Position numbers and translations under genes: made by a program. The notes under the pieces were generated by a model. The model did no database searches, was not told the origin of the DNA, and saw nothing but the letters and a program-made list of their open reading frames with translations. A stretch of DNA of 35,887 bases from a virus: the IMG/VR virus record IMGVR_UViG_3300045988_088904, positions 1-35,887 of that record; one strand, given 5' to 3'. Of this stretch, positions 788 to 35,887 are shown piece by piece. Numbering within the stretch: position 1 is the stretch's first letter; each line of letters begins with the position of its first letter.

Positions 788-1519
788 ATGAGAACAACCG
801 CGATTATTAACCTCAAGGGCGGCGTCGCAAAGACGACGACAGCCCTGAACATGGCCGCGATACTGGCCAAGGACTACAAGCAGCGCGTCCTGCTGGTGGA
901 CGCTGACAGCCAATGCAACTGCACCGAGTTTTTCCAGCGCGGCATCGCGCACCCCGGCACCCTCGCCGACATGCTGCGCGGCCTCGCGCCGTGCATCGAG
1001 CACAGCCGGTTCGACGGCGTCGACCTCCTGCCGGGAGACGACAGCCTGATGGACCTTGACCTGACGAAGATCGAGACCGGCAGCGCCTCCGCCGTGTGCC
1101 TGCGTGAGCTGACCGCGGAGCTGGGCGACAGGTACGACCGGATGATCATCGACTGCCCTCCGGCGTTTAATGCGGCCTCCGCCGCGGCGCTGGTGGCGGC
1201 GGACGAGGTCATCATCCCGATCAAGCTCGACGCGTTCAGCCTGCGCGGGATGGCTAACATCATGCAGCAGGTCAGTAATATGCGCAAGATTAACGACAGC
1301 CTCACCGTCGCCGGCATCCTGCCGACGATGTGGTATAAGTCCGATAACATCATCGAGGCCGAGAAGATGCTGCGCGAGTTCGGGCTCCCGGTGCTGCCGC
1401 ATGTGCGGCGCACGAACAAGGTCGACGACATGACCTTTGCGCAGGAGCCGCTTGTTATCAGCTCGCCGAAGAGCGCGGCGGGCGTCGATTACCGCCGCGT
1501 CGTCGCGGCGCTTATGTGA
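788..1519 (+). CDS. parA: ParA/Soj-type partition ATPase
   Basis: GGAGG 774-778 upstream of ATG 788. N-terminus MRTTAIINLKGGVAKTTT is the deviant Walker A KGGxxK[ST]. 243 aa; parB follows 12 nt later. Confidence 0.88.
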   Translation: MRTTAIINLKGGVAKTTTALNMAAILAKDYKQRVLLVDADSQCNCTEFFQRGIAHPGTLADMLRGLAPCIEHSRFDGVDLLPGDDSLMDLDLTKIETGSASAVCLRELTAELGDRYDRMIIDCPPAFNAASAAALVAADEVIIPIKLDAFSLRGMANIMQQVSNMRKINDSLTVAGILPTMWYKSDNIIEAEKMLREFGLPVLPHVRRTNKVDDMTFAQEPLVISSPKSAAGVDYRRVVAALM

Positions 1520-1531
1520 GGAGGTGCGGTC

Positions 1532-2848
1532 ATGGGATTCGATTTAGCATCGGTGCTCAAGAATGTGCCCGAATCGGGCACAAATGACGGCCGTGAGCGC
1601 ATCGAGTACATAGGGCTCGACAGGCTGCACGACGACCCGAATAACTTCTACTCCCTCGACGGCATCAAGGAGCTTGCCGAAAACATCGAGTTTGCGGGGC
1701 TCCAGCAGCCCGTCCGCGTCCGCCGCGATGCGGAACACAGCGGCGAGTACATCATCGTCAGCGGCCACCGCCGCACGGCGGCGATGCGCAAGATCGTCGA
1801 GGACGGCAACAAGGCCTTTGAGACGGTGCCCTGTATCGTCGAGGCCGACGGCGGCAGCGAGGCGCTGCGCGAGCTGCGCCTGATCTACGCTAACTCCGAC
1901 ACCCGCCGGATGTCCTCCGCGGATATCTCGAAGCAGGCCGAGCGCGTCGAGGCGCTGCTCTACCAGCTCAAGGAGGAGGGCGTCGAGTTCCCCGGCAGGA
2001 TGCGCGACCACGTCGCCGAGGCCTGCAAGGTGAGCAAGTCGAAGCTGTCCCGCCTGAAGGTCATTCGCGATAAGCTCGCGCCGGATATCTACGCCGGGTA
2101 CTATGAAAAGGGCAAGCTACCAGAGGACACGGCCTATACGCTCGCTAAGCTTCCGGTCGAAGTCCAGCGTGACATTGTTGACCGCGCGACGCGGGATGGG
2201 CGGCAAAACATCCAGTATCTTTACGCGGCCAAAGTCGAAGATCAGGGCAAGGACATCGCGCGTTTCAGCAAAATGGCCTGCCGCTGCGAGCAGGGCGGAA
2301 TCTGTATCAATGTTCCAAACCTGATGGATAAACTCTATGACACTCGCGGATGGCGAGGCTATACGCACTGCGGCTCCGGCTGCTGCTACGACTGCGTCGA
2401 GCTTGCGACCTGCTCAAAGTGCTGCTCCCGCATGGCGGTAGTCAAGGCGCAGAAAAAGGCCGAAAAGAAAGCGGCCAAGGCCGCGGAAGCTGCGGTGCAG
2501 GCCGAACGCGACAGGCCGGTGATCGACGCGCTGCGGCTCCTCTGGAACCGGATGGGCGAGGCCTGTAAGAGGGCGGGCGTCGATTACAGCGAGGTCTGCG
2601 ACAAGGCCGGCATATACGCCACCCTGCCTCCCAAGGACGCGACCGTGCTGCTTGACGGCGGCGGCAAGCTGACGGCAGACACCTGGCCTCCGTTCGGCTG
2701 CGTCATAGGCCGAGACGATATATCGAGCCTCGTCAAGCTGGCCGATCTGCTCGGCTGCTCGCTGGATTATCTCTTTGGCCGCGATGTGCCCGAATCGGGC
2801 ACCGGCACGAATTATTTTTGCGCCGACGGAGAAAGGAAGAACGGATGA
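1532..2848 (+). CDS. parB: ParB-family protein with Cys-rich insert and C-terminal XRE-like helix
   Basis: GAGGAGG RBS. ParB N-terminal domain motifs DDPNNFY and VSGHRRTAAM. Cys-rich block at 2273-2435. C-terminal LADLLGCSLDYLFG resembles the end of an XRE HTH. Confidence 0.8.
   Translation: MGFDLASVLKNVPESGTNDGRERIEYIGLDRLHDDPNNFYSLDGIKELAENIEFAGLQQPVRVRRDAEHSGEYIIVSGHRRTAAMRKIVEDGNKAFETVPCIVEADGGSEALRELRLIYANSDTRRMSSADISKQAERVEALLYQLKEEGVEFPGRMRDHVAEACKVSKSKLSRLKVIRDKLAPDIYAGYYEKGKLPEDTAYTLAKLPVEVQRDIVDRATRDGRQNIQYLYAAKVEDQGKDIARFSKMACRCEQGGICINVPNLMDKLYDTRGWRGYTHCGSGCCYDCVELATCSKCCSRMAVVKAQKKAEKKAAKAAEAAVQAERDRPVIDALRLLWNRMGEACKRAGVDYSEVCDKAGIYATLPPKDATVLLDGGGKLTADTWPPFGCVIGRDDISSLVKLADLLGCSLDYLFGRDVPESGTGTNYFCADGERKNG
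1564..1582. repeat. Dispersed palindrome copy 1 (TGTGCCCGAATCGGGCACA), inside parB 5' end
   Basis: 9-bp arms around a single central base. In-frame, encodes VPESGT. Confidence 0.95.
2786..2802. repeat. Dispersed palindrome copy 2 (GTGCCCGAATCGGGCAC), inside parB 3' end
   Basis: Exact 17-nt core, in the same codon phase as copy 1; again encodes VPESGT. Confidence 0.95.
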
Positions 2849-3354
2849 AAGCGGCTTTAATCAGCATACGCCCGGAGTGGTGTGCGAAGATCGCGAGCGG
2901 CGAGAAGACAATCGAGGTGCGGAAAACGCGCCCGAAGCTGGAAACGCCGTTTAAGTGCTATATCTACTGCACGAAGGACGCGAAGAAACAGTTTTGGACA
3001 GGGCCGAAGTATTCCTATGCGGACGACCACAGCCATAACGCGTTTGATAAATGTGGGAGCGGAAAGGTCATCGGCGAGTTTCTTTGCAATCAGATTATTG
3101 AGGATCACACGTTCGGTCTCAATGAAAAGTTTTACACAGCGGCTTGCATGAGCGCATGCGATGCGGCGGCGTATGCATTGCAGTCACCGATGTACGGCTG
3201 GAATATCTCCAATCTTAAAATTTATGATGTACCACGCGAACTGGCCAGTCTTACCGGCCTACGCGCTACGAGGTTCGGCGCGGCACCGTATGATATCAAG
3301 CGCGCCCCGCAAAGCTGGTGCTATGTGGAGGAGGCAGACAATGGCAATAAGTAA
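2845..3354 (+). CDS. ASCH (PUA-like) domain protein
   Basis: ATG 2845 after GGAGAAAGGAAG. N-terminus MKAALISIRPEWCAKIASGEKTIEVRK is typical of phage ASCH-domain proteins (recollection). Confidence 0.6.
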   Translation: MKAALISIRPEWCAKIASGEKTIEVRKTRPKLETPFKCYIYCTKDAKKQFWTGPKYSYADDHSHNAFDKCGSGKVIGEFLCNQIIEDHTFGLNEKFYTAACMSACDAAAYALQSPMYGWNISNLKIYDVPRELASLTGLRATRFGAAPYDIKRAPQSWCYVEEADNGNK

Positions 3355-3685
3355 AAAGACCCGTGAGGCTGTCTATCAGAAATACGCCGGGCACTGTGCA
3401 TATTGCGGCCGGCCGCTCGCCTACAAGGACATGCAGGTCGACCACTTTAGACCGCTGCGAGCATGGGACGCGGAGGATGCAGGAACCGACGATATCTCGA
3501 ACCTCATGCCGGCGTGCCGGATGTGTAACCATTATAAGCGGGCAAACAGCATTGAAACGTTTCGCAGATACATCCGGGAAATCCCGCAAAAGCTCCGAGA
3601 CAATTACATCTACAAGGTTGGCCTTGCTTATGGCACCGTCACAGAGCGCGAAAAGCCGATAGTGTTTTATTTTGAATTATTTTGA
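3341..3685 (+). CDS. HNH endonuclease
   Basis: ATG 3341 after GGAGGAGG (3327-3334). CAYCG...VDHFRP...NLMPACRMCNHYK is an HNH/zinc-finger motif set. Confidence 0.8.
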   Translation: MAISKKTREAVYQKYAGHCAYCGRPLAYKDMQVDHFRPLRAWDAEDAGTDDISNLMPACRMCNHYKRANSIETFRRYIREIPQKLRDNYIYKVGLAYGTVTEREKPIVFYFELF

Positions 3686-3693
3686 GGAGGAAA

Positions 3694-3912
3694 ATGTCAA
3701 TGGATGCTCAAGCTTCTGATGTTGCGCCGGTGAATAGCTATTGGGAAAGTTATTCGTGTTTGCAGTTTATGGGGACAGATGAATGGGGCGAACCGAAATG
3801 GCGCGCTGGTAGGTTTTACGTCTGCCACAACTACAAATGCCGATGGAAAACGGTTGTAAAAAGTAACTTCTGCCCCAACTGCGGCGCGAGAATGGACGGT
3901 GAAGAGCCGTGA
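3694..3912 (+). CDS. Small zinc-ribbon protein
   Basis: GAGGAGG RBS 5 nt before ATG 3694. C-terminal CHNYKC...CPNCG Cys pairs. Confidence 0.6.
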   Translation: MSMDAQASDVAPVNSYWESYSCLQFMGTDEWGEPKWRAGRFYVCHNYKCRWKTVVKSNFCPNCGARMDGEEP

Positions 3913-4124
3913 AAACAGACAGAGCACTTCACGCGCCCCTCACGATAGACCTGTCTGACATTACATGGGATACTCCGATTTTGCTTCGAATTCCCATCCT
4001 CCCCGGTTTCCCGGGCATCATGGAGTACAAGGGCTATATTTCAGATCTTGAGTTCAACTCTGGGGCGAAACAGTTGTCCTTGACGTTCGACATACCCGGC
4101 TCGGAGAAAAAGCGGCATGAGTAA
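3909..4124 (+). CDS. Hypothetical protein
   Basis: GTG start overlaps the upstream stop (GTGA). Same strand, packed operon. No recognisable motif. Confidence 0.45.
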   Translation: MKTDRALHAPLTIDLSDITWDTPILLRIPILPGFPGIMEYKGYISDLEFNSGAKQLSLTFDIPGSEKKRHE

Positions 4125-4458
4125 GAGCGGATTACTCGCCCGGCAGAAGGCCGAGCGCGAACTGTGGACGATCAAGGTGATCGCCTATACCGAGCAGCAG
4201 ACGCTCGATGCGGTCTGCCTCGCACTTGCCGAGGGCTTCGGGTTCGGTGAGGAGCGGCTGAAACGCTTCCACGATGCGTTCAATGCCAAGTACGCGGAAA
4301 TCCGAGAACTTGAAAAGGGCGATACCAAGGATAACGAGTACGCCATCGCCAAGCAGGAGGCCGCGCTCAAGGCGGCCTGTGGTAAGTACTATTCGCCTCG
4401 CGAGGTGCGGTATGATATCAAGATCGTCACGCGAGACGGTAAACAGCACAAATTGTGA
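4117..4458 (+). CDS. Hypothetical protein
   Basis: ATG overlaps the end of the previous ORF. 113 aa with protein-like composition. Confidence 0.55.
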   Translation: MSKSGLLARQKAERELWTIKVIAYTEQQTLDAVCLALAEGFGFGEERLKRFHDAFNAKYAEIRELEKGDTKDNEYAIAKQEAALKAACGKYYSPREVRYDIKIVTRDGKQHKL

Positions 4459-4475
4459 TAAGGAGGAAGTTAACA

Positions 4476-4736
4476 ATGCTTTGTCCATTTAAGCGCGTAA
4501 CCACCCGCCTCCCCAGCGGTCAGACTAATGGTCAGGCCTTTGGCCTTTGCAGTGAGGACAACTGCATGGCCTACTATGTAAAAAACGAGTACGACACCAA
4601 GCCGCCGTTTTCGGTAATTGGCAGTCGTCCCGCTTGCCGGCTCATAGAGCATCCGTATGCCGCACCGATAGCGTACTGCTCCATGTTCGGCTCGGACGAC
4701 GAGGGGGCAAACCCGGAGGCGCTGGATGATGAATAA
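4476..4736 (+). CDS. Hypothetical protein
   Basis: AAGGAGGAAG RBS 6 nt before ATG 4476. Confidence 0.6.
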   Translation: MLCPFKRVTTRLPSGQTNGQAFGLCSEDNCMAYYVKNEYDTKPPFSVIGSRPACRLIEHPYAAPIAYCSMFGSDDEGANPEALDDE

Positions 4737-15286: not shown

Positions 15287-17074
15287 GTGGCGACACGCAA
15301 AGTAAATACCGAGTTCACGGTCACCGGTGAAGAGAAGCTCAGACGGGCAATAACCGAGATCAACAACGGCGCGAAGGTGCTCAAGTCCGAGATGAATAAG
15401 CTCACTGCCGAGTATGACGGCAACACCGACAGCGCCGAATTTTTAACCCAGAAATACGACATCCTCGAACGCCAGATGCTGACGCAGAAGGACAAGGTCG
15501 GGGCTCTCAAGCAGGCCGTCGCCGACTCCGCCGAGGCTTACGGCGAAGCTGATTCCCGGACGCAGAACTGGATAATCCGGCTCAACAACGCCGAGGCCGC
15601 CCTCGCCAAGACCTACGGCGAGATGGGGCGGACGCAGACGGCCATTGAGGGCATGGACGGTGCCTTAGACGATGTGTCCGGCTCGACCGGCTCGGCCGCC
15701 GAGGGCATGACTTCTCTCGGCGACGTGCTCGACACCGTCGCCGATAAGCTCGGCATTAAGCTGCCGGACGGTATCTCTAAGTTCACCGGCGGGCTCGGCA
15801 AAATCCCGGCTTCCACCGCCGCAGCAGCCGCCGGCGTTGCCGCGGTCGTCGCGGTCGTCATTAAGCTCGAGAAAAAGCTTATGGACGTCACCAAGGAGAC
15901 CGCGGCAGCGGCTAAGGAGCTTGAGGCGCTGTCCTTGCGGACCGGCGTCAGCACGACGGACTTGCAGGCCTTCCAGTATGCCGAGGATTTTATCGGCGTC
16001 AGTTCCGACCAGCTCGCTGATTCCCTTAAGGACTTAACCACAAAGATGTCCGACGCGGCGAACGGCAACGAGGAGACCGCCGCAAAGTTTGACCAGCTCG
16101 GCATGTCCATCTACGACGCACAGGGCAACCTTCGCAGCTCCTATGACGTGTTTCTCGACGTGATAGACGGACTCGGTGAGATGAGCAACCAGGCAGAGCG
16201 CGACGCGCTGGCCATGAGCCTTATCAACGAAAGTGCGCAGCAGCTCAACCCGCTTATCGAGCAGGGTTCCGGTTCTCTGAAAAAGTACGCAGCCGAGGCC
16301 GAAAACGTCGGTTACATCCTAAGCAATGACCAGCTAAAGGCGCTGACTGACGTCGACGAAGCACAGAACCGGCTGCTTAAGTCTCAGGAGGCCGTCAGCA
16401 AGCAGATCAGCGCAGAGTACGCGCCGTATATGTCCGACGCTCTCAATGAGACACGCGAGCTCATAGAGAAGGTCGGCACAGCGCTTATCGACTCCGGCGC
16501 GGTCGAGGCGTTCGGTTCGATACTGGACAGCGCTGTCTCCCTGCTTGAGCCGCTGGGCGATCTCACCGCTGATATCCTCCCCCCGTTGGGGACTCTGCTG
16601 CAAGGCATTGCCGGGACGCTGGCATGGGCAGCAGATACAATCAATCTGATCGTCGGCCTGCTGACGCTCAACGGCGACCGGATCAGCACCGCGCTCGGGC
16701 TCAACCCGAACAAGGCATCGAACATTCAGAAGGCGCTCTACGGCGCGGACTATAAGACCGAGAGCTACTACGACTCGACCGGCAACTACTACGACCCGAC
16801 GACCGGCCAGTGGACAGGCAACTACTTCCACAACGCCGGGGGCAACGACAACTTCCCCGGAGGGCGCACGAGGGTCGGCGAGAATGGCCCGGAGACCGTC
16901 TACCTGCCGCAGGGTACGGTCATCGCCAACGCGCAGGAGACGCGCGCTGACGGCGGCTACGACGCGCCTGTCAACGTCTACATTGAGGCGCGGACGATTC
17001 AGGAGTTTAACGACATTATTGAGATAGTGCGTGACGCCCAGCGCGTCCGCCGGATGAAGGGAGCGCCGAGATGA
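15287..17074 (+). CDS. Tail tape measure protein
   Basis: GTG after GGAGGTG. 595 aa, coiled-coil and Ala/Gly-rich. Position after G/GT. Confidence 0.85.
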   Translation: MATRKVNTEFTVTGEEKLRRAITEINNGAKVLKSEMNKLTAEYDGNTDSAEFLTQKYDILERQMLTQKDKVGALKQAVADSAEAYGEADSRTQNWIIRLNNAEAALAKTYGEMGRTQTAIEGMDGALDDVSGSTGSAAEGMTSLGDVLDTVADKLGIKLPDGISKFTGGLGKIPASTAAAAAGVAAVVAVVIKLEKKLMDVTKETAAAAKELEALSLRTGVSTTDLQAFQYAEDFIGVSSDQLADSLKDLTTKMSDAANGNEETAAKFDQLGMSIYDAQGNLRSSYDVFLDVIDGLGEMSNQAERDALAMSLINESAQQLNPLIEQGSGSLKKYAAEAENVGYILSNDQLKALTDVDEAQNRLLKSQEAVSKQISAEYAPYMSDALNETRELIEKVGTALIDSGAVEAFGSILDSAVSLLEPLGDLTADILPPLGTLLQGIAGTLAWAADTINLIVGLLTLNGDRISTALGLNPNKASNIQKALYGADYKTESYYDSTGNYYDPTTGQWTGNYFHNAGGNDNFPGGRTRVGENGPETVYLPQGTVIANAQETRADGGYDAPVNVYIEARTIQEFNDIIEIVRDAQRVRRMKGAPR

Positions 17075-33161: not shown

Positions 33162-33452
33162 ATGTTTGAGAACAAGTATGTAATCGTCCGCGGCGATCAC
33201 TCCGGCGTATTTGCCGGGCATCTCAAGAGCAAGGAGGGCAGAGAGGTCACGCTGACCGACTGCCGCCGTATCTGGTATTGGGACGGTGCAGCCAGCATAT
33301 CCGAGCTTGCCAACATAGGCACCAAGAAACCCCAGTCCTGTAAGTTCCCCGCACCGGTCGCCGAGATCTGTATAACGGACGCGATCGAGATCATCCCCTG
33401 CACCGAGGCCGCAGAGGCGAGCATCAAGGCGGTTCGCGTATGGACAGCTTAA
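33162..33452 (+). CDS. Hypothetical conserved phage protein
   Basis: AAAGGAGG RBS. VIVRGDHSGVFAGHL...CRRIWYWDGAASISELA resembles a recurrent phage family of unknown function (recollection). Confidence 0.6.
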   Translation: MFENKYVIVRGDHSGVFAGHLKSKEGREVTLTDCRRIWYWDGAASISELANIGTKKPQSCKFPAPVAEICITDAIEIIPCTEAAEASIKAVRVWTA

Positions 33453-34246
33453 CAGTTCAGGAGTTCCTGAAGGTCGAATTTAACGGCTACGGCTCCGGCT
33501 GCGGCGACGGCTCCGGCGACGGCTACGGCGACGGCTCCGGCGACGGCTACGGCGACGGCTCCGGCTACGGCTACGGCGACGGCTACGGCTCCGGCTACGG
33601 CTACGGCGACGGCTACGGCTACGGCTACGGCTCCGGCGACGGCTACGGCGACGGCTCCGGCGACGGCTACGGCGACGGCTCCGGCTACGGCTACGGCGAC
33701 GGCTACGGCTACGGCGACGGCTCCGGCGACGGCTACGGCGACGGCTCCGGCTCCGGCGACGGCTACGGCTACGGCTCCGGCTTAAAGAGCCTCTGTGGAG
33801 AACCTGTCTATATGATCGACGGTGTGCCGACGATCATCACCGGGCTCCGCGGCTCTGTCGCGATGGGGTTTATCGTGATGATTGATCTGTCGAAGCGTAA
33901 GACATTCGTCGTCAAGGGCGGCGGGAAGTTCGCGCACGGTGAGAATCTCCACGCAGCACAGGCAGCACTGGAGGAGAAGCTTTTTGACGATATGCCCGTC
34001 GAGGAGAAGCTTGAAGCGTTCCGGGAGCAGTTCACACCGGGCGAGTCCTACACCGTCGCGGACTTCTACGACTGGCACCATCGCCTCACGGGCAGCTGCA
34101 CGCAGGGGCGCGATGCCTTCGCGCAGGATCATGAGCTCAGCATGAACGACGCTATGACCCCGGAGGAGTTCATCGACCTGACTAAGGACGCATTTGGCGG
34201 CCGGATCATTCGCCAGCTTGCGGAGCACTACGGTATTGATCTCTGA
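33440..34246 (+). CDS. Protein with (Gly-X)49 low-complexity region (X = Tyr/Asp/Ser) and a globular C-terminal domain of unknown function
   Basis: ATG 33440 overlaps the upstream gene. 268 aa, with residues 16-114 a strict Gly-X alternation. Confidence 0.7.
   Translation: MDSLTVQEFLKVEFNGYGSGCGDGSGDGYGDGSGDGYGDGSGYGYGDGYGSGYGYGDGYGYGYGSGDGYGDGSGDGYGDGSGYGYGDGYGYGDGSGDGYGDGSGSGDGYGYGSGLKSLCGEPVYMIDGVPTIITGLRGSVAMGFIVMIDLSKRKTFVVKGGGKFAHGENLHAAQAALEEKLFDDMPVEEKLEAFREQFTPGESYTVADFYDWHHRLTGSCTQGRDAFAQDHELSMNDAMTPEEFIDLTKDAFGGRIIRQLAEHYGIDL
33485..33781 (+). repeat. Perfect hexanucleotide tandem array GGC-(TAC/GAC/TCC), 49 units
   Basis: Only four hexamer types occur: GGCTAC x20, GGCGAC x16, GGCTCC x12, GGCTGC x1. 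An 82-bp internal duplication, 33509-33590 = 33629-33710. Confidence 0.97.
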
Positions 34247-34309: not shown

Positions 34310-35083
34310 ATGGGAGTAATTCGCGTTGAGCACACGCGGGACTTCACTGTCATGAGCAATGTTCACCTGCGTGACGACAGGCTCAGTCTCCGAGCAATCG
34401 GGCTTATGAGCAAGATGCTGAGTAATACTGACGATTACCAGTACACTGTTTCAGGATTGGCAGCGCGATGTAAGGAGGGCAGGGACGCGGTGCGGAAGGC
34501 ACTGCAAGAGCTTGAGGCGGCAGGGTACCTCGTGCGTGAGCAAGGACACGGGGCGTGCGGCAAATTCAGCGGCTACGACTACACTCTGTACGAAAGCCCT
34601 CGAACGCCTTGCAATAGTGAGGGGGTGCCGTTGACTGAAAAGCCGACGACGGCAGAACCGTTGACGGAGAATCCGCCACAAAGAAGTACTAATCTTGAAG
34701 AAATACTAAATATACCCCCTATAGTCCCCCATGAGGGGGACGGTGTGGGTGAAGGAAAGAGAAAGCGGAAGCGCGTTCCGAAGTCGGTTCCAGACTGGGA
34801 GCCGGAAATGTTTGAGCGATTCTGGAAGGCCTACCCACGCGGCAATGATCGTCAAGGGGCAGTACGTGAATGGGACAACCTGAAGCCTTCCCGCAAACTC
34901 ATGATGATTATGAGTGCTGCGCTCCTCCGTCAAAAGGACAGCGAGGACTGGCAGCGCGGGATCGGTATACCATACGCCTGCCGGTGGCTCTCGAAGCGTC
35001 GGTGGGAAGATGAAGACAGGGCGCAGCCCGAACCGCGGACGAGCGGTGCGGGTGACGGAGGGGAGCGCGAAGAATGGACCTGA
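34310..35083 (+). CDS. Replisome organizer / replication initiator with N-terminal winged-helix domain (DnaD-like context)
   Basis: GAGGGTGG RBS. N-terminal FTVMSNVHLRDDRLSLRAIGLMSKMLS...GLAARCKEGRDAVRKALQELEAAGYL. Stop overlaps the helicase start. Confidence 0.65.
   Translation: MGVIRVEHTRDFTVMSNVHLRDDRLSLRAIGLMSKMLSNTDDYQYTVSGLAARCKEGRDAVRKALQELEAAGYLVREQGHGACGKFSGYDYTLYESPRTPCNSEGVPLTEKPTTAEPLTENPPQRSTNLEEILNIPPIVPHEGDGVGEGKRKRKRVPKSVPDWEPEMFERFWKAYPRGNDRQGAVREWDNLKPSRKLMMIMSAALLRQKDSEDWQRGIGIPYACRWLSKRRWEDEDRAQPEPRTSGAGDGGEREEWT
34628..34741. other. Candidate replication origin inside the organizer gene
   Basis: 18-bp iterons CCGTTGACTGAAAAGCCG (34628-34645) and CCGTTGACGGAGAATCCG (34658-34675). 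An AT-rich tract at 34681-34715. A 7-bp hairpin GTCCCCC/GGGGGAC at 34724-34741. Confidence 0.4.
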
Positions 35084-35887
35084 CCGACTACTCAGCCTAC
35101 TACGACGCTCAGACGGCAGTCCTCGGCTCGCTGCTGATAGAGCCGGAGAAGCTCGCGGGACAGATCATGCACGTGGTCAGGCCGGAGGACTTCTCCGACC
35201 CCGTCAAGCGAAACCTCTTCACCGCGGCGCGGGAGATATTCCTCAAGCGCGAGACTCTCGACGCCGTGACGCTCGTGGAGCATGTCGGCGCTGCGTATTC
35301 GCAGCAGGTGCGCGAGATACTCCAGCTGACTCCGACGGCGAATAACTGGCGCGAGTATGTGAAGCTCCTTAAGAACGGCGCGATGCTGACACGCATCCGC
35401 GATCTGGGGCAGGCGCTCACAGAGGCGGCCAGCGCGGAGGACGGGCGGAGGCTCCTTGTCGAGGCACAGGGGATGCTGAGTGTGAGGCCCGGGCGGCGAG
35501 TCCGGAACTACACGGAGATCCTCGCGGACTTCTTCGACCGCATGAACGACCCGACACCGCCGGACTTCCTCAAGTTCGGGATCGAGGCGCTGGACAAAAA
35601 GGTCAGGATCAGCCGCGGCAGCTTCGTCGTCATAGGCGCGGACAGCTCCGTCGGCAAGACGGCATTCTCCCTGCAGCTCGCGTATAACATCGCAGCCGGC
35701 GGGAGCCGGGTCTGCTTCTTCAGCTACGAGACGAGCCTTGAGGCGTCGGCCGACCGCACGATCGCGAACACCGCAGATGCGCGGCTGTCGGACATCAAGG
35801 CGAAGAATATATCCGAGCACGTCGCCCGCCGGGCGATGGCCGAGGCGGAGCGTTCCGAACGCATACCGCTGTACATACAGGAGTCCG
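35074..35887 (+). CDS. dnaB: DnaB-family replicative helicase, N-terminal part (runs off the window end and continues at 56..555 via the circular junction)
   Basis: ATG 35074 overlaps the upstream stop. TAVLGSLLIEPEKL is a DnaB N-terminal motif. Walker A GADSSVGKT. No stop before the window end. The joined length is 437 aa. Confidence 0.85.
   Translation, partial: MDLTDYSAYYDAQTAVLGSLLIEPEKLAGQIMHVVRPEDFSDPVKRNLFTAAREIFLKRETLDAVTLVEHVGAAYSQQVREILQLTPTANNWREYVKLLKNGAMLTRIRDLGQALTEAASAEDGRRLLVEAQGMLSVRPGRRVRNYTEILADFFDRMNDPTPPDFLKFGIEALDKKVRISRGSFVVIGADSSVGKTAFSLQLAYNIAAGGSRVCFFSYETSLEASADRTIANTADARLSDIKAKNISEHVARRAMAEAERSERIPLYIQES
35833..35887 (+). repeat. 55-nt exact duplicate of bases 1-55 (circular assembly overlap)
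   Basis: Direct comparison shows GCGATGGCCGAGGCGGAGCGTTCCGAACGCATACCGCTGTACATACAGGAGTCCG at both ends. Confidence 0.97.

Follow-up and report, generated by a model that had tools for sequence, protein, structure and literature searches.

A predicted two-gene phage cassette that joins DUF6948 to a length-variable Gly-X polymer

Introduction

Length-polymorphic coding repeats and low-complexity disordered proteins are kinds of sequence that are already known. To the first belong the mycobacterial PE_PGRS proteins (Gly-Gly-X) and the Gly-Ala repeat of EBNA1 from Epstein-Barr virus (EBV), and to the second the prion-like domains of the FUS family, which are dominated by Gly, Ser and Tyr, carry [G/S]Y[G/S] repeats and depend on composition over order. 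Acidic disordered tails are found in E. coli SSB (a Gly-rich linker with an acidic tip), T7 gp2.5 and T4 gp32. In this work we analyzed a hexanucleotide array of the type (GGCKMC)n, where K is T or G and M is A or C, and the gene that contains it in the IMG/VR virus record IMGVR_UViG_3300045988_088904; the whole stretch of DNA that was analyzed (positions 1 to 35,887 of the record, 35,887 nt) is called the window below. The gene encodes a protein with Gly at every second residue of a long tract (the Gly-X protein), followed by a C-terminal globular domain (C-domain), and its 5' neighbor is a gene of the DUF6948 family.

A phage repeat of this kind, the '(KMGCCG)35' GC-rich repeat of phage phiPLPE at 46,046–46,255, was listed as non-coding and speculated to be an attachment (att) site (Comeau et al., 2012, Table 3; PMC3391216). 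KMGCCG is GGCKMC reverse-complemented and cyclically permuted, and the phiPLPE repeat coincides with a Gly-X open reading frame (ORF) located after gp84. Our literature search revealed no papers treating the phiPLPE-type repeat as coding, tying it to DUF6948 or describing the C-domain family, and none mentioning DUF6948; queries on peptide motifs, glycine-tyrosine phage repeats, phage microsatellites and 'fibroin heavy chain' phage proteins gave nothing relevant except the phiPLPE table. An earlier sequence-only reading of the window had stated that no characterised phage protein of this type was known. This stands for the protein, as no paper on a coding repeat was found, and has to be amended for the DNA repeat, which was already on record in phiPLPE.

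Results

The Hexamer Array and the Gly-X Gene

The gene, its parts and its 5' neighbor are located in the window as follows:

33440–34246, plus strand: Gly-X protein gene, 268 aa plus stop, comprising N-peptide, tract and C-domain (ORF listing)
33440–33484, plus strand: 15-aa N-terminal peptide MDSLTVQEFLKVEFN, predicted amphipathic helix, conserved across close homologues
33485–33781, plus strand: hexanucleotide array (GGC-KMC)49 + GGC inside the Gly-X gene, encoding (Gly-Tyr/Asp/Ser)49.5
33507–33590, plus strand: 84-bp exact internal duplication, copy 1, within a 120-bp tandem duplication
33627–33710, plus strand: 84-bp exact internal duplication, copy 2, within the same 120-bp tandem duplication
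33782–34243, plus strand: C-terminal globular domain, 154 aa, of an unnamed family (AlphaFold2 fold, conserved motifs)
33162–33452, plus strand: DUF6948 gene, 96 aa (Pfam PF22253, E = 4.6e-29)

The array is composed of 49 in-frame hexamers, GGCTAC (20), GGCGAC (16), GGCTCC (12) and GGCTGC (1), and a terminal GGC, which together give 49.5 Gly-X units and 99 residues; Tandem Repeats Finder (TRF) placed it at 33483–33782. The encoded tract has a net charge of −16, with 20 Tyr, 16 Asp and no basic residues. C occupies the third position in all 99 codons, and every amino acid is written with a single codon. In the other genes of the window GGC, TAC, GAC and TCC are used at 58, 64, 79 and 24%, respectively, and relative to this usage the uniformity of the tract corresponds to a log10 P of about −24.8 (P ~1e-25). 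The C-domain part of the same gene has mixed codons.

Our recount reproduced the 49 hexamers and the coordinates 33485–33781 of the sequence-only reading, and the codon-level uniformity that it had noticed held up against the usage of the window's genes. The tract, put there at about 98 residues, has 99 when the terminal GGC is included, its Gly-Tyr/Asp/Ser content having been given correctly. Likewise, the block described as 82 bp, duplicated 120 bp apart, is indeed an exact duplication but is 84 bp long. The two 120-bp tandem copies agree at 116 of 120 positions.

The N-peptide is the same or nearly so in 85 close homologues. Family-wide, the N-terminus follows an M-E/D-x-hydrophobic pattern, which is also seen in the window gene, where it is succeeded by the 49.5 Gly-X units. 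In the AlphaFold2 (AF2) model a helix spans residues 3–10, with a predicted local distance difference test score (pLDDT) of about 76. A likeness of the N-peptide to the leaders of double-glycine bacteriocins, and of DUF6948 to Sm-like folds, was considered and is not claimed.

Variation in Tract Length

Among the listed homologues, 85 clusters with 91–98% C-domain identity share the same N-peptide, and each of them has a different tract, of 13–83 aa. In all 85 the tract length is odd, so that the differences are whole dipeptides (6 nt). At the DNA level, the tract measures 6n+3 in each of the 26 complete loci of the close clade, from 33 to 297 bp, and GGCTAC, GGCGAC or GGCTCC make up 94.5% of the pooled hexamers of this clade.

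The most direct comparison comes from loci with 100% identical 750-nt flanks. One such group contained tracts of 129, 177 and 201 bp, and another pair had tracts of 183 and 159 bp that differ by a single 24-nt indel, while other compared pairs of loci shared identical tracts. Since identical flanks carry tracts of different length, the array changes quicker than nearby substitutions build up, though not at every passage. The sequence-only reading had predicted in-frame length polymorphism between isolates and proposed a search for C-domain homologues with variable Gly-X tracts; the prediction was confirmed by these data, and such homologues were found. Its suggestion of a recent expansion by slippage or unequal recombination is supported as regards this type of turnover, but the array is no one-off, being a member of a large family (1042 clusters).

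The window tract (297 bp) is the longest complete tract that we saw, the next one measuring 285 bp. In nine of the 35 close-clade loci the tract was truncated or interrupted by N-gaps, and many contigs stop in it. Within the window array there are 30 repeated 55-mers, and the 84-bp repeat exceeds the apparent assembly k of 55. Because short-read assemblies often break in the tract, the exact number of units, which depends on read threading, is uncertain; there is no doubt about the array as such or about its nature. A nucleotide search (blastn) of the window region against INPHARED phages gave no matches.

Homologues of 144 aa that seemed to be devoid of the tract were considered as a sign that it is dispensable and rejected, as they have N-gaps inside the tract. 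In two loci (L041, 1262–1362; L042, 1296–1416) the runs of N lie exactly within the tract, and gene callers start at an internal Met, which produces the spurious 144-aa proteins P0086 and P0116.

Codon Dialects and Composition of the Tract

Comparison of homologous arrays revealed four codon dialects, each homogeneous within an array and all encoding the same polymer: GGC+KMC (as in the window), GGC+KMT, GGT+KMC and GGG+KMC. The GGC+KMT dialect was found in phages whose flanks have 23–35% GC. The third base of the X codon follows the GC content of the flanks (r = 0.64), and bases one and two stay TA, GA or TC. Arrays that have decayed at the DNA level and use mixed codons still show the Gly-X periodicity. 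Because four dialects write the same composition, it is apparently the protein that selection keeps.

In the 85 close homologues the X residues are Tyr (33.7%), Ser (32.8%) and Asp (28.9%). Ala accounts for only 0.3%, though GCC is reached by the same types of transversion as those that interchange Tyr, Asp and Ser, and the transition products His and Cys are rare too. The wider family, represented by 92 sequences at no more than 50% identity, has tracts with 41–45% Gly, 13–15% Ser, 12–15% Tyr and 9% Asp and hardly any Lys, Arg or Pro; 93% of these tracts are net-negative. The tract is kept in about 90% of the family representatives that have an N-terminal region. X residues follow one another in near-random order. 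A patterning of charges or stickers was also considered and dropped, since the statistics of neighboring X residues disagreed between sets.

AF2 gave the tract of a short-tract homologue a pLDDT below 50, in agreement with the disordered, low-complexity character attributed to it from the letters. The conserved segment I/LKSxxGxxV that precedes the C-domain has no start codon of its own, and the Met of 'YMIDG' is not conserved in the family. Therefore, judging by the sequence, translation of the C-domain has to start at the ATG of the N-peptide and pass through the tract.

The C-Terminal Domain

The C-domain is predicted to fold into five beta-strands followed by six helices. With 45 homologues as input, the AF2 models had a pLDDT of 86–90 overall and above 93 in the C-domain, and the expectation of a globular C-terminal domain of roughly 150 residues fused to the tract was thus borne out (pLDDT > 90). 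Two motifs, FAHGxT..A and WHxxLTGSCxxGRxxF, are near-invariant and are both present in the window protein; they suggest a site formed by His, Cys and Arg.

A search with the C-domain alone revealed 1042 homologous protein clusters (at 90% identity), and those listed had the same architecture. A profile search of 1.84 billion representatives yielded 728 clusters at 50% identity. No matches to the C-domain were found in Pfam, PHROGs, NCBIfam or PADLOC, nor in the PDB, either by a sequence profile search or by Foldseek with two models. The matches in BFVD were uncharacterised phage proteins only, the best of them being named 'Lamprin' for its own Gly-rich tract.

Several names and profile matches proved to be uninformative. 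Homologues in nr and UniProt called sulfur globule protein, colicin E9 or lamprin are only Caudoviricetes entries derived from metagenome-assembled genomes (MAGs); no homology to proteins of these names was seen outside the low-complexity region, and the C-domain lacks a Pfam, PDB or NCBIfam match. The lone Pfam match, under the cut-off, was to a low-complexity stretch of TrAA12. Matches to phrog_18306, phrog_11232 and phrog_10432 were set aside; the first and the last of these match the low-complexity tract and not the domain.

Rare C-domain proteins have other N-terminal modules in place of the tract: DUF6948 (P0260), leucine-rich repeats (LRRs; in P0263 and in Riemerella phage CRP6) or an Ant KilAC domain. 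In CRP6 the C-domain gene is located between the genes for Erf, for an SSB-tail protein and for DnaB. This LRR-bearing homologue (3809–4417 in OQ789245) is annotated as 'ribonuclease inhibitor', presumably for its LRRs. On its 5' side, at 3366–3662, lies the gene of a 98-aa protein with an SSB-like acidic tip (...DDDDLPF).

Association With DUF6948 and Distribution of the Cassette

In the window, the final 13 nt of the DUF6948 gene overlap the start of the Gly-X gene (ATG at 33440), the ATG being located within Val-Trp codons of the former; the Gly-X gene is thus predicted to be translationally coupled to it. DUF6948 was found immediately 5' in every related locus that includes upstream DNA, down to 43% C-domain identity.

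To describe the partnership from the other side, we scanned IMG/VR with the DUF6948 profile. At least 599 stretches matched, with at least 534 confirmed DUF6948 loci, and the genes downstream were counted in the best 80. In 74 of these 80 a Gly-X ORF lies directly 3' of DUF6948, with the tract starting within about 300 nt and mostly within 120 nt. The C-domain follows the tract in 41 of the 74 loci, 20 encode the tract only, in 10 the contig ends in the tract, and three have other sequence after it; most of the remaining six loci stop too early or show a brief Gly-X stretch. The tract is thus the whole protein in about a quarter of the DUF6948 loci. Since it often occurs without the C-domain, it appears to be the core element and not merely a linker. 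In phages of gut Clostridia (Oscillospiraceae-type), including that of the window, a C-domain of 145–154 aa is attached.

In a collection of cultured and curated phages, DUF6948 was found in 16 records. We inspected six of them, and each has as its next ORF, 3' of DUF6948, a nearly pure Gly-[Ser/Tyr/Asp] polymer without a C-domain:

Ralstonia phage NK-7: Gly-X ORF of 137 aa, annotated 'fibroin heavy chain-like'
Pectobacterium phage Sabo: Gly-X ORF of 73 aa, hypothetical protein
Iodobacter phage phiPLPE: Gly-X ORF present, unannotated
Vibrio phage IKEMa6-1: Gly-X ORF present, record without annotation
Chlorobiaceae phage CV-1-33: Gly-X ORF present, called in the wrong frame ('MAMAMALAMA...')
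Freshwater podovirus: Gly-X ORF of 98 aa, hypothetical protein

Two of these records deserve a more precise description. In CV-1-33 [MT192033], gene_25 at 2783–3028 ('MAMAMAMALAMALAMA...') is a wrong-frame call of a GGC-KMT array; the Gly-X frame at 2767–3021, directly 3' of the DUF6948 gene, gives MDGINYGYGDGDGSGDGSGYG.... In phiPLPE [EU876853], an unannotated Gly-X ORF of 78 codons is located at 1173–1406, after gp84 (DUF6948).

Taken together, the loci correspond to a conserved two-gene phage cassette, in which DUF6948 (~96 aa) is followed by a Gly-X protein defined by (Gly-[Tyr/Ser/Asp])n. Its elements can also be joined: besides P0260, in which DUF6948 is linked directly to the C-domain, the profile phrog_18306 contains a Gly-X tract at 53–145 and then DUF6948 at 155–238, which suggests that Gly-X/DUF6948 fusions exist. 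The cassette is located in early or accessory regions, often near genes of Erf, RecE, Sipho_Gp157 and DnaB. In Pectobacterium phages it forms an isolated plus-strand pair amid minus-strand tail genes, a placement that looks like that of a mobile accessory module. A nucleotide search of the Pectobacterium copy against E. coli genomes gave no matches, and a profile search of DUF6948 against the PDB found none either.

Genomic Setting in the Window

Other features of the window that define the setting of the cassette are:

34310–35083, plus strand: replication initiator (HTH_36 / phrog_270), 3' of the Gly-X gene
35092 over the contig junction to 555: DnaB-type helicase
788–2848, plus strand: ParA-like ATPase and ParB_N protein, 3' of DnaB
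30272–30300, plus strand: perfect sigma-70 consensus promoter (TTGACA-17-TATAAT) at the start of the rightward early operon in which the cassette lies
29883–30185, minus strand: CI-like helix-turn-helix gene, divergent
28060–28932, minus strand: Ltp-type surface lipoprotein gene, adjoining the integrase gene (Pfam PF07553, E = 5.8e-27)
26790–28004, minus strand: integrase, 5.5 kb from the tract

Ltp is a superinfection-exclusion family. Genes for TerL, a portal, an HK97-type capsid, a tape-measure-like protein and an endolysin were also found. Because the window begins and ends with the same 55 nt (1–55 and 35833–35887), it can be taken as a circular contig of ~35,832 bp; a de Bruijn assembler run with k=55 is its probable origin. 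By its gene content it appears to be a complete temperate tailed phage. Its relatives were seen in metagenomes of the human gut and in MAGs of Eubacteriales and Oscillospiraceae. The position of the Gly-X gene in the rightward operon, with the replication initiator and DnaB on its 3' side, supports the view that it is an early gene just upstream of the replication genes, as the sequence-only reading had it.

Some observations concern other parts of the window and its relatives. A twister-P1-type ribozyme-like element (Rfam RF03160) at 31325–31379 on the plus strand, in the early operon between ORFs 30933–31331 and 31609–32097, gave a full-length match to the model, with a score of 44.3 bits against a gathering score of 67.2 (E = 1.2e-7 to 7.6e-9). 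Its core nucleotides are kept, and one optional stem is cut to 1 nt; it is 98–100% conserved in 12 close relatives, which is too uniform for covariation. A 21-bp tandem repeat (2.1 copies, TRF score 62) at 16756–16800, in the tape-measure-like ORF 15287–17074, is probably trivial. Finally, in the early operon of a close relative that carries the cassette, positions 4329–4583 (locus L001) gave a weak match to Tad2, an anti-Thoeris family; this hints that the cassette region hosts counter-defence genes.

Discussion

Proposed Mechanism

We propose that the array encodes a translated, hypervariable Gly-X polymer which, as a part of the DUF6948 cassette, acts as a multivalent binder. To this explanation as a whole we assign a probability of roughly 0.6. 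Its parts differ in strength. The array would gain and lose hexamers or blocks of hexamers via slippage or unequal recombination, and such turnover would homogenise synonymous sites into the codon dialects of lineages and alter tract length. A unit of 6 nt cannot shift the frame, and changes at the first or second position of NNC/NNT codons would not create a stop. Selection would then act on composition, with Gly at ~50% and Tyr, Ser and Asp roughly equal, leaving order and exact length free and purging Ala, His, Cys, Asn, Phe, Lys and Arg. We are highly confident in this portion, that is, in a coding microsatellite with block turnover, frame and stop safety and selection on composition.

The product would be a disordered, acidic, Tyr-studded 'sticker-spacer' chain, made early together with DUF6948 and, since the starts of the two genes overlap, in a fixed ratio to it. 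Such a chain would most likely serve as a multivalent flexible binder. It could form a scaffold or condensate, or else imitate single-stranded nucleic acid by its polyanionic and aromatic character, and it would target a host or phage component that handles nucleic acids or takes part in defence. In the window phage the tract may also tether the N-terminal helix to the C-domain. Any specific version of the binder, scaffold or mimic role, suggested by composition and context, is tentative and by itself unlikely to be the right one.

In its boldest form the hypothesis describes a hitherto unrecognised mobile two-gene cassette, distributed among tailed phages of Firmicutes, Proteobacteria and Chlorobi, with other phyla probable as well. 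Its active product would be a genetically self-renewing, disordered polyanionic aromatic polymer, whose hypermutable gene could never be inactivated by its own 6-nt slippage, given the NNY codons. As a mimic of nucleic acid, a decoy or a scaffold for condensates, the polymer would either neutralise a host factor of defence or nucleic-acid binding or organise replication early in infection. We regard this as doubtful at present; if it is true, the length and composition of the tract would be tuned in an arms race.

Several points weigh against the proposed explanation. Homology and structure searches gave no functional match for the tract, DUF6948 or the C-domain, and the binder-or-mimic step is drawn only from composition and context. 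Translation of the tract is argued from the sequence. GGC is the Gly codon in most lineages, even where the flanks have 23–35% GC, a preference that a purely protein-level model does not predict, and the DNA or RNA may be under constraint as well. Assembly errors could account for some of the length polymorphism, given the nine broken loci among 35 and the k=55-type assembly of the window.

Alternative Explanations

The tract could be a tolerated, near-neutral runaway microsatellite in a linker that provides spacing only. Lengths of 13 to 99 aa in otherwise near-identical proteins and the near-random order of X residues are consistent with this, but the high retention of the tract among representatives with an N-terminal region is not, and in the close clade it is never truly absent, the 'tract-less' proteins of 144 aa being N-gapped scaffolds. 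A linker is also hard to reconcile with loci where the tract is the entire protein, about a quarter of those with DUF6948, or with a composition conserved across phages of Firmicutes, Proteobacteria and Chlorobi, from which mutationally accessible residues have been purged. We consider a neutral linker improbable.

A structural or ion-binding repeat, such as a (Gly-X)n beta-sheet or fibril of the silk type or an Asp-Gly array that binds Ca2+, is a slimmer possibility still. The strict period-2 Gly recalls silk fibroin, annotators have used the names 'fibroin heavy chain-like', 'sulfur globule protein' and 'lamprin', and 16 Asp with no basic residues in the window tract would suit ion binding. 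However, the X residues Tyr and Asp are bulky or charged, unlike Ala or Ser, the random order of X speaks against a defined fold, and the tract scores a pLDDT below 50. For a silk-type beta-crystallite the period of 2 agrees; X is Tyr, Asp or Ser, and AF2 leaves the tract unstructured, though it is a weak guide to fibrils. The sequence contains neither the RTX nonapeptide (GGXGXDXUX) nor a period-3 collagen or polyproline-II pattern. RTX or beta-roll Ca2+-binding repeats were rejected because the period is 2 instead of 9 and hydrophobic U residues are missing from the tract, and a collagen-like or polyproline-II Gly-X-Y bundle because Gly stands at every second residue throughout.

The repeat could also be a DNA or RNA element, such as an att or recombination site, an iteron array of an origin or partition type, or an array bound by DUF6948, with its translation incidental. 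This is how the phiPLPE copy was treated (PMC3391216), and the use of GGC for Gly in most lineages whatever the genome GC points the same way. Moreover, (GGCKMC)n is open in all three forward frames by construction, so that an ORF alone proves nothing, and a 6-nt unit preserves the frame automatically. What argues for the protein is that GGT or GGG can take the place of GGC, and KMT that of KMC, in arrays for the same polymer, that decayed arrays stay Gly-X, that the synonymous third base of X drifts with GC while positions 4–5 of the hexamer are constrained, and that the C-domain would be untranslatable without reading through the tract. An attachment site was rejected on the grounds that a conserved ORF contains the tract, that the integrase gene is 5.5 kb distant, and that the protein is conserved across dialects. 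A structured RNA or DNA role was dropped because the RNA of the tract is less structured than all 200 shuffles (z = +7.1). We find a DNA or RNA element with incidental translation decidedly improbable.

Least probable by far is an assembly artefact, affecting either the whole array or at least its length and the internal duplication. In its favor are the identical 55-nt ends of the window, which point to assembly with k=55, the 84-bp exact repeat and the 30 repeated 55-mers of the tract, the many contigs that end or have N-gaps in it, and the window tract being the longest seen (297 bp, the next being 285 bp). Against it, in-frame arrays of the same kind are known from over 1000 independent protein clusters, from cultured phages with complete genomes and from the phiPLPE sequence already published, and the four differences between the 120-bp copies would allow a unique minimal de Bruijn path. 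An artefact is excluded for the feature, though not for its exact length.

Significance

The cassette is abundant and essentially undescribed, and it is built on a frame-safe hypervariable Gly-X polymer. How widespread it is can be seen from the at least 534 DUF6948 loci in IMG/VR and the more than 1000 clusters of the C-domain form in gut metagenomes. It has been overlooked: assemblers break in the tract, the ORF is missed, called in the wrong frame or named for silk, colicin or sulfur-globule proteins, and the published mention of the repeat presented it as non-coding. The gene combines built-in variability with safety of frame and stop and with selection on composition rather than sequence, and thus offers a natural system for studying the evolution and function of low-complexity disordered proteins in bacteria and phages. 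Cultured carriers (Pectobacterium phage Sabo and its relatives, Ralstonia NK-7, Vibrio IKEMa6-1 and Iodobacter phiPLPE) make it tractable. The tract is also a strain-level length marker for gut phages and a weak point of short-read assembly.

Comparison With Known Systems

The phiPLPE repeat is the nearest relative, sharing with the window both the hexamer and the site directly after a DUF6948 homologue; its Gly-X frame encodes MSRLVNNKN(G-Y/D/S)n. It differs in having no annotated ORF and no C-terminal domain.

In composition, the tract resembles the FUS-family domains, with which it shares its Gly/Ser/Tyr content, the predicted disorder and the unimportance of order relative to composition. 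This likeness rests on composition, and the tract is distinguished by a strict period-2 Gly, ~30% Asp at X, the lack of Gln, Asn and Arg, its polyanionic character and its origin in a pure microsatellite. The SSB-type tails resemble the Gly-X protein in having a flexible Gly-rich link between a folded domain and a brief, conserved peptide at one terminus, an acidic-aromatic character and a location near replication and recombination genes. In the Gly-X protein, however, the tip is at the N-terminus, no OB fold was detected, and the tract can be the whole protein. Silk fibroin, (Gly-Ala/Ser)n, likewise has Gly at every second residue and long codon-homogeneous arrays; the tract differs from it in having Tyr, Asp or Ser at X, in its predicted disorder and in belonging to a small intracellular protein.

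As to systems that vary, the variable region of a diversity-generating retroelement was considered and rejected, because the variable positions are the T/G and A/C of the hexamers and the copy number rather than template adenines; no reverse transcriptase domain was found among the window ORFs scanned, which were a part of the total. PE_PGRS and EBNA1 share with the Gly-X gene GC-rich, codon-homogeneous in-frame arrays of isolate-variable length between conserved N- and C-terminal flanks. The Gly-X gene differs in its unit, Gly-X with Tyr, Ser or Asp, in the lack of a PE domain and in its place in an early or accessory phage cassette with an obligate DUF6948 partner. Bacterial contingency loci are similar in their slippage-prone coding repeats and in their rapid change between near-identical genomes. 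A phase-variable locus of this type was nevertheless rejected, as the unit is 6 nt and all 85 homologues and all 26 complete loci are in frame. Unlike contingency loci, the array is never OFF, and it is its length and composition that vary rather than an ON/OFF phase.

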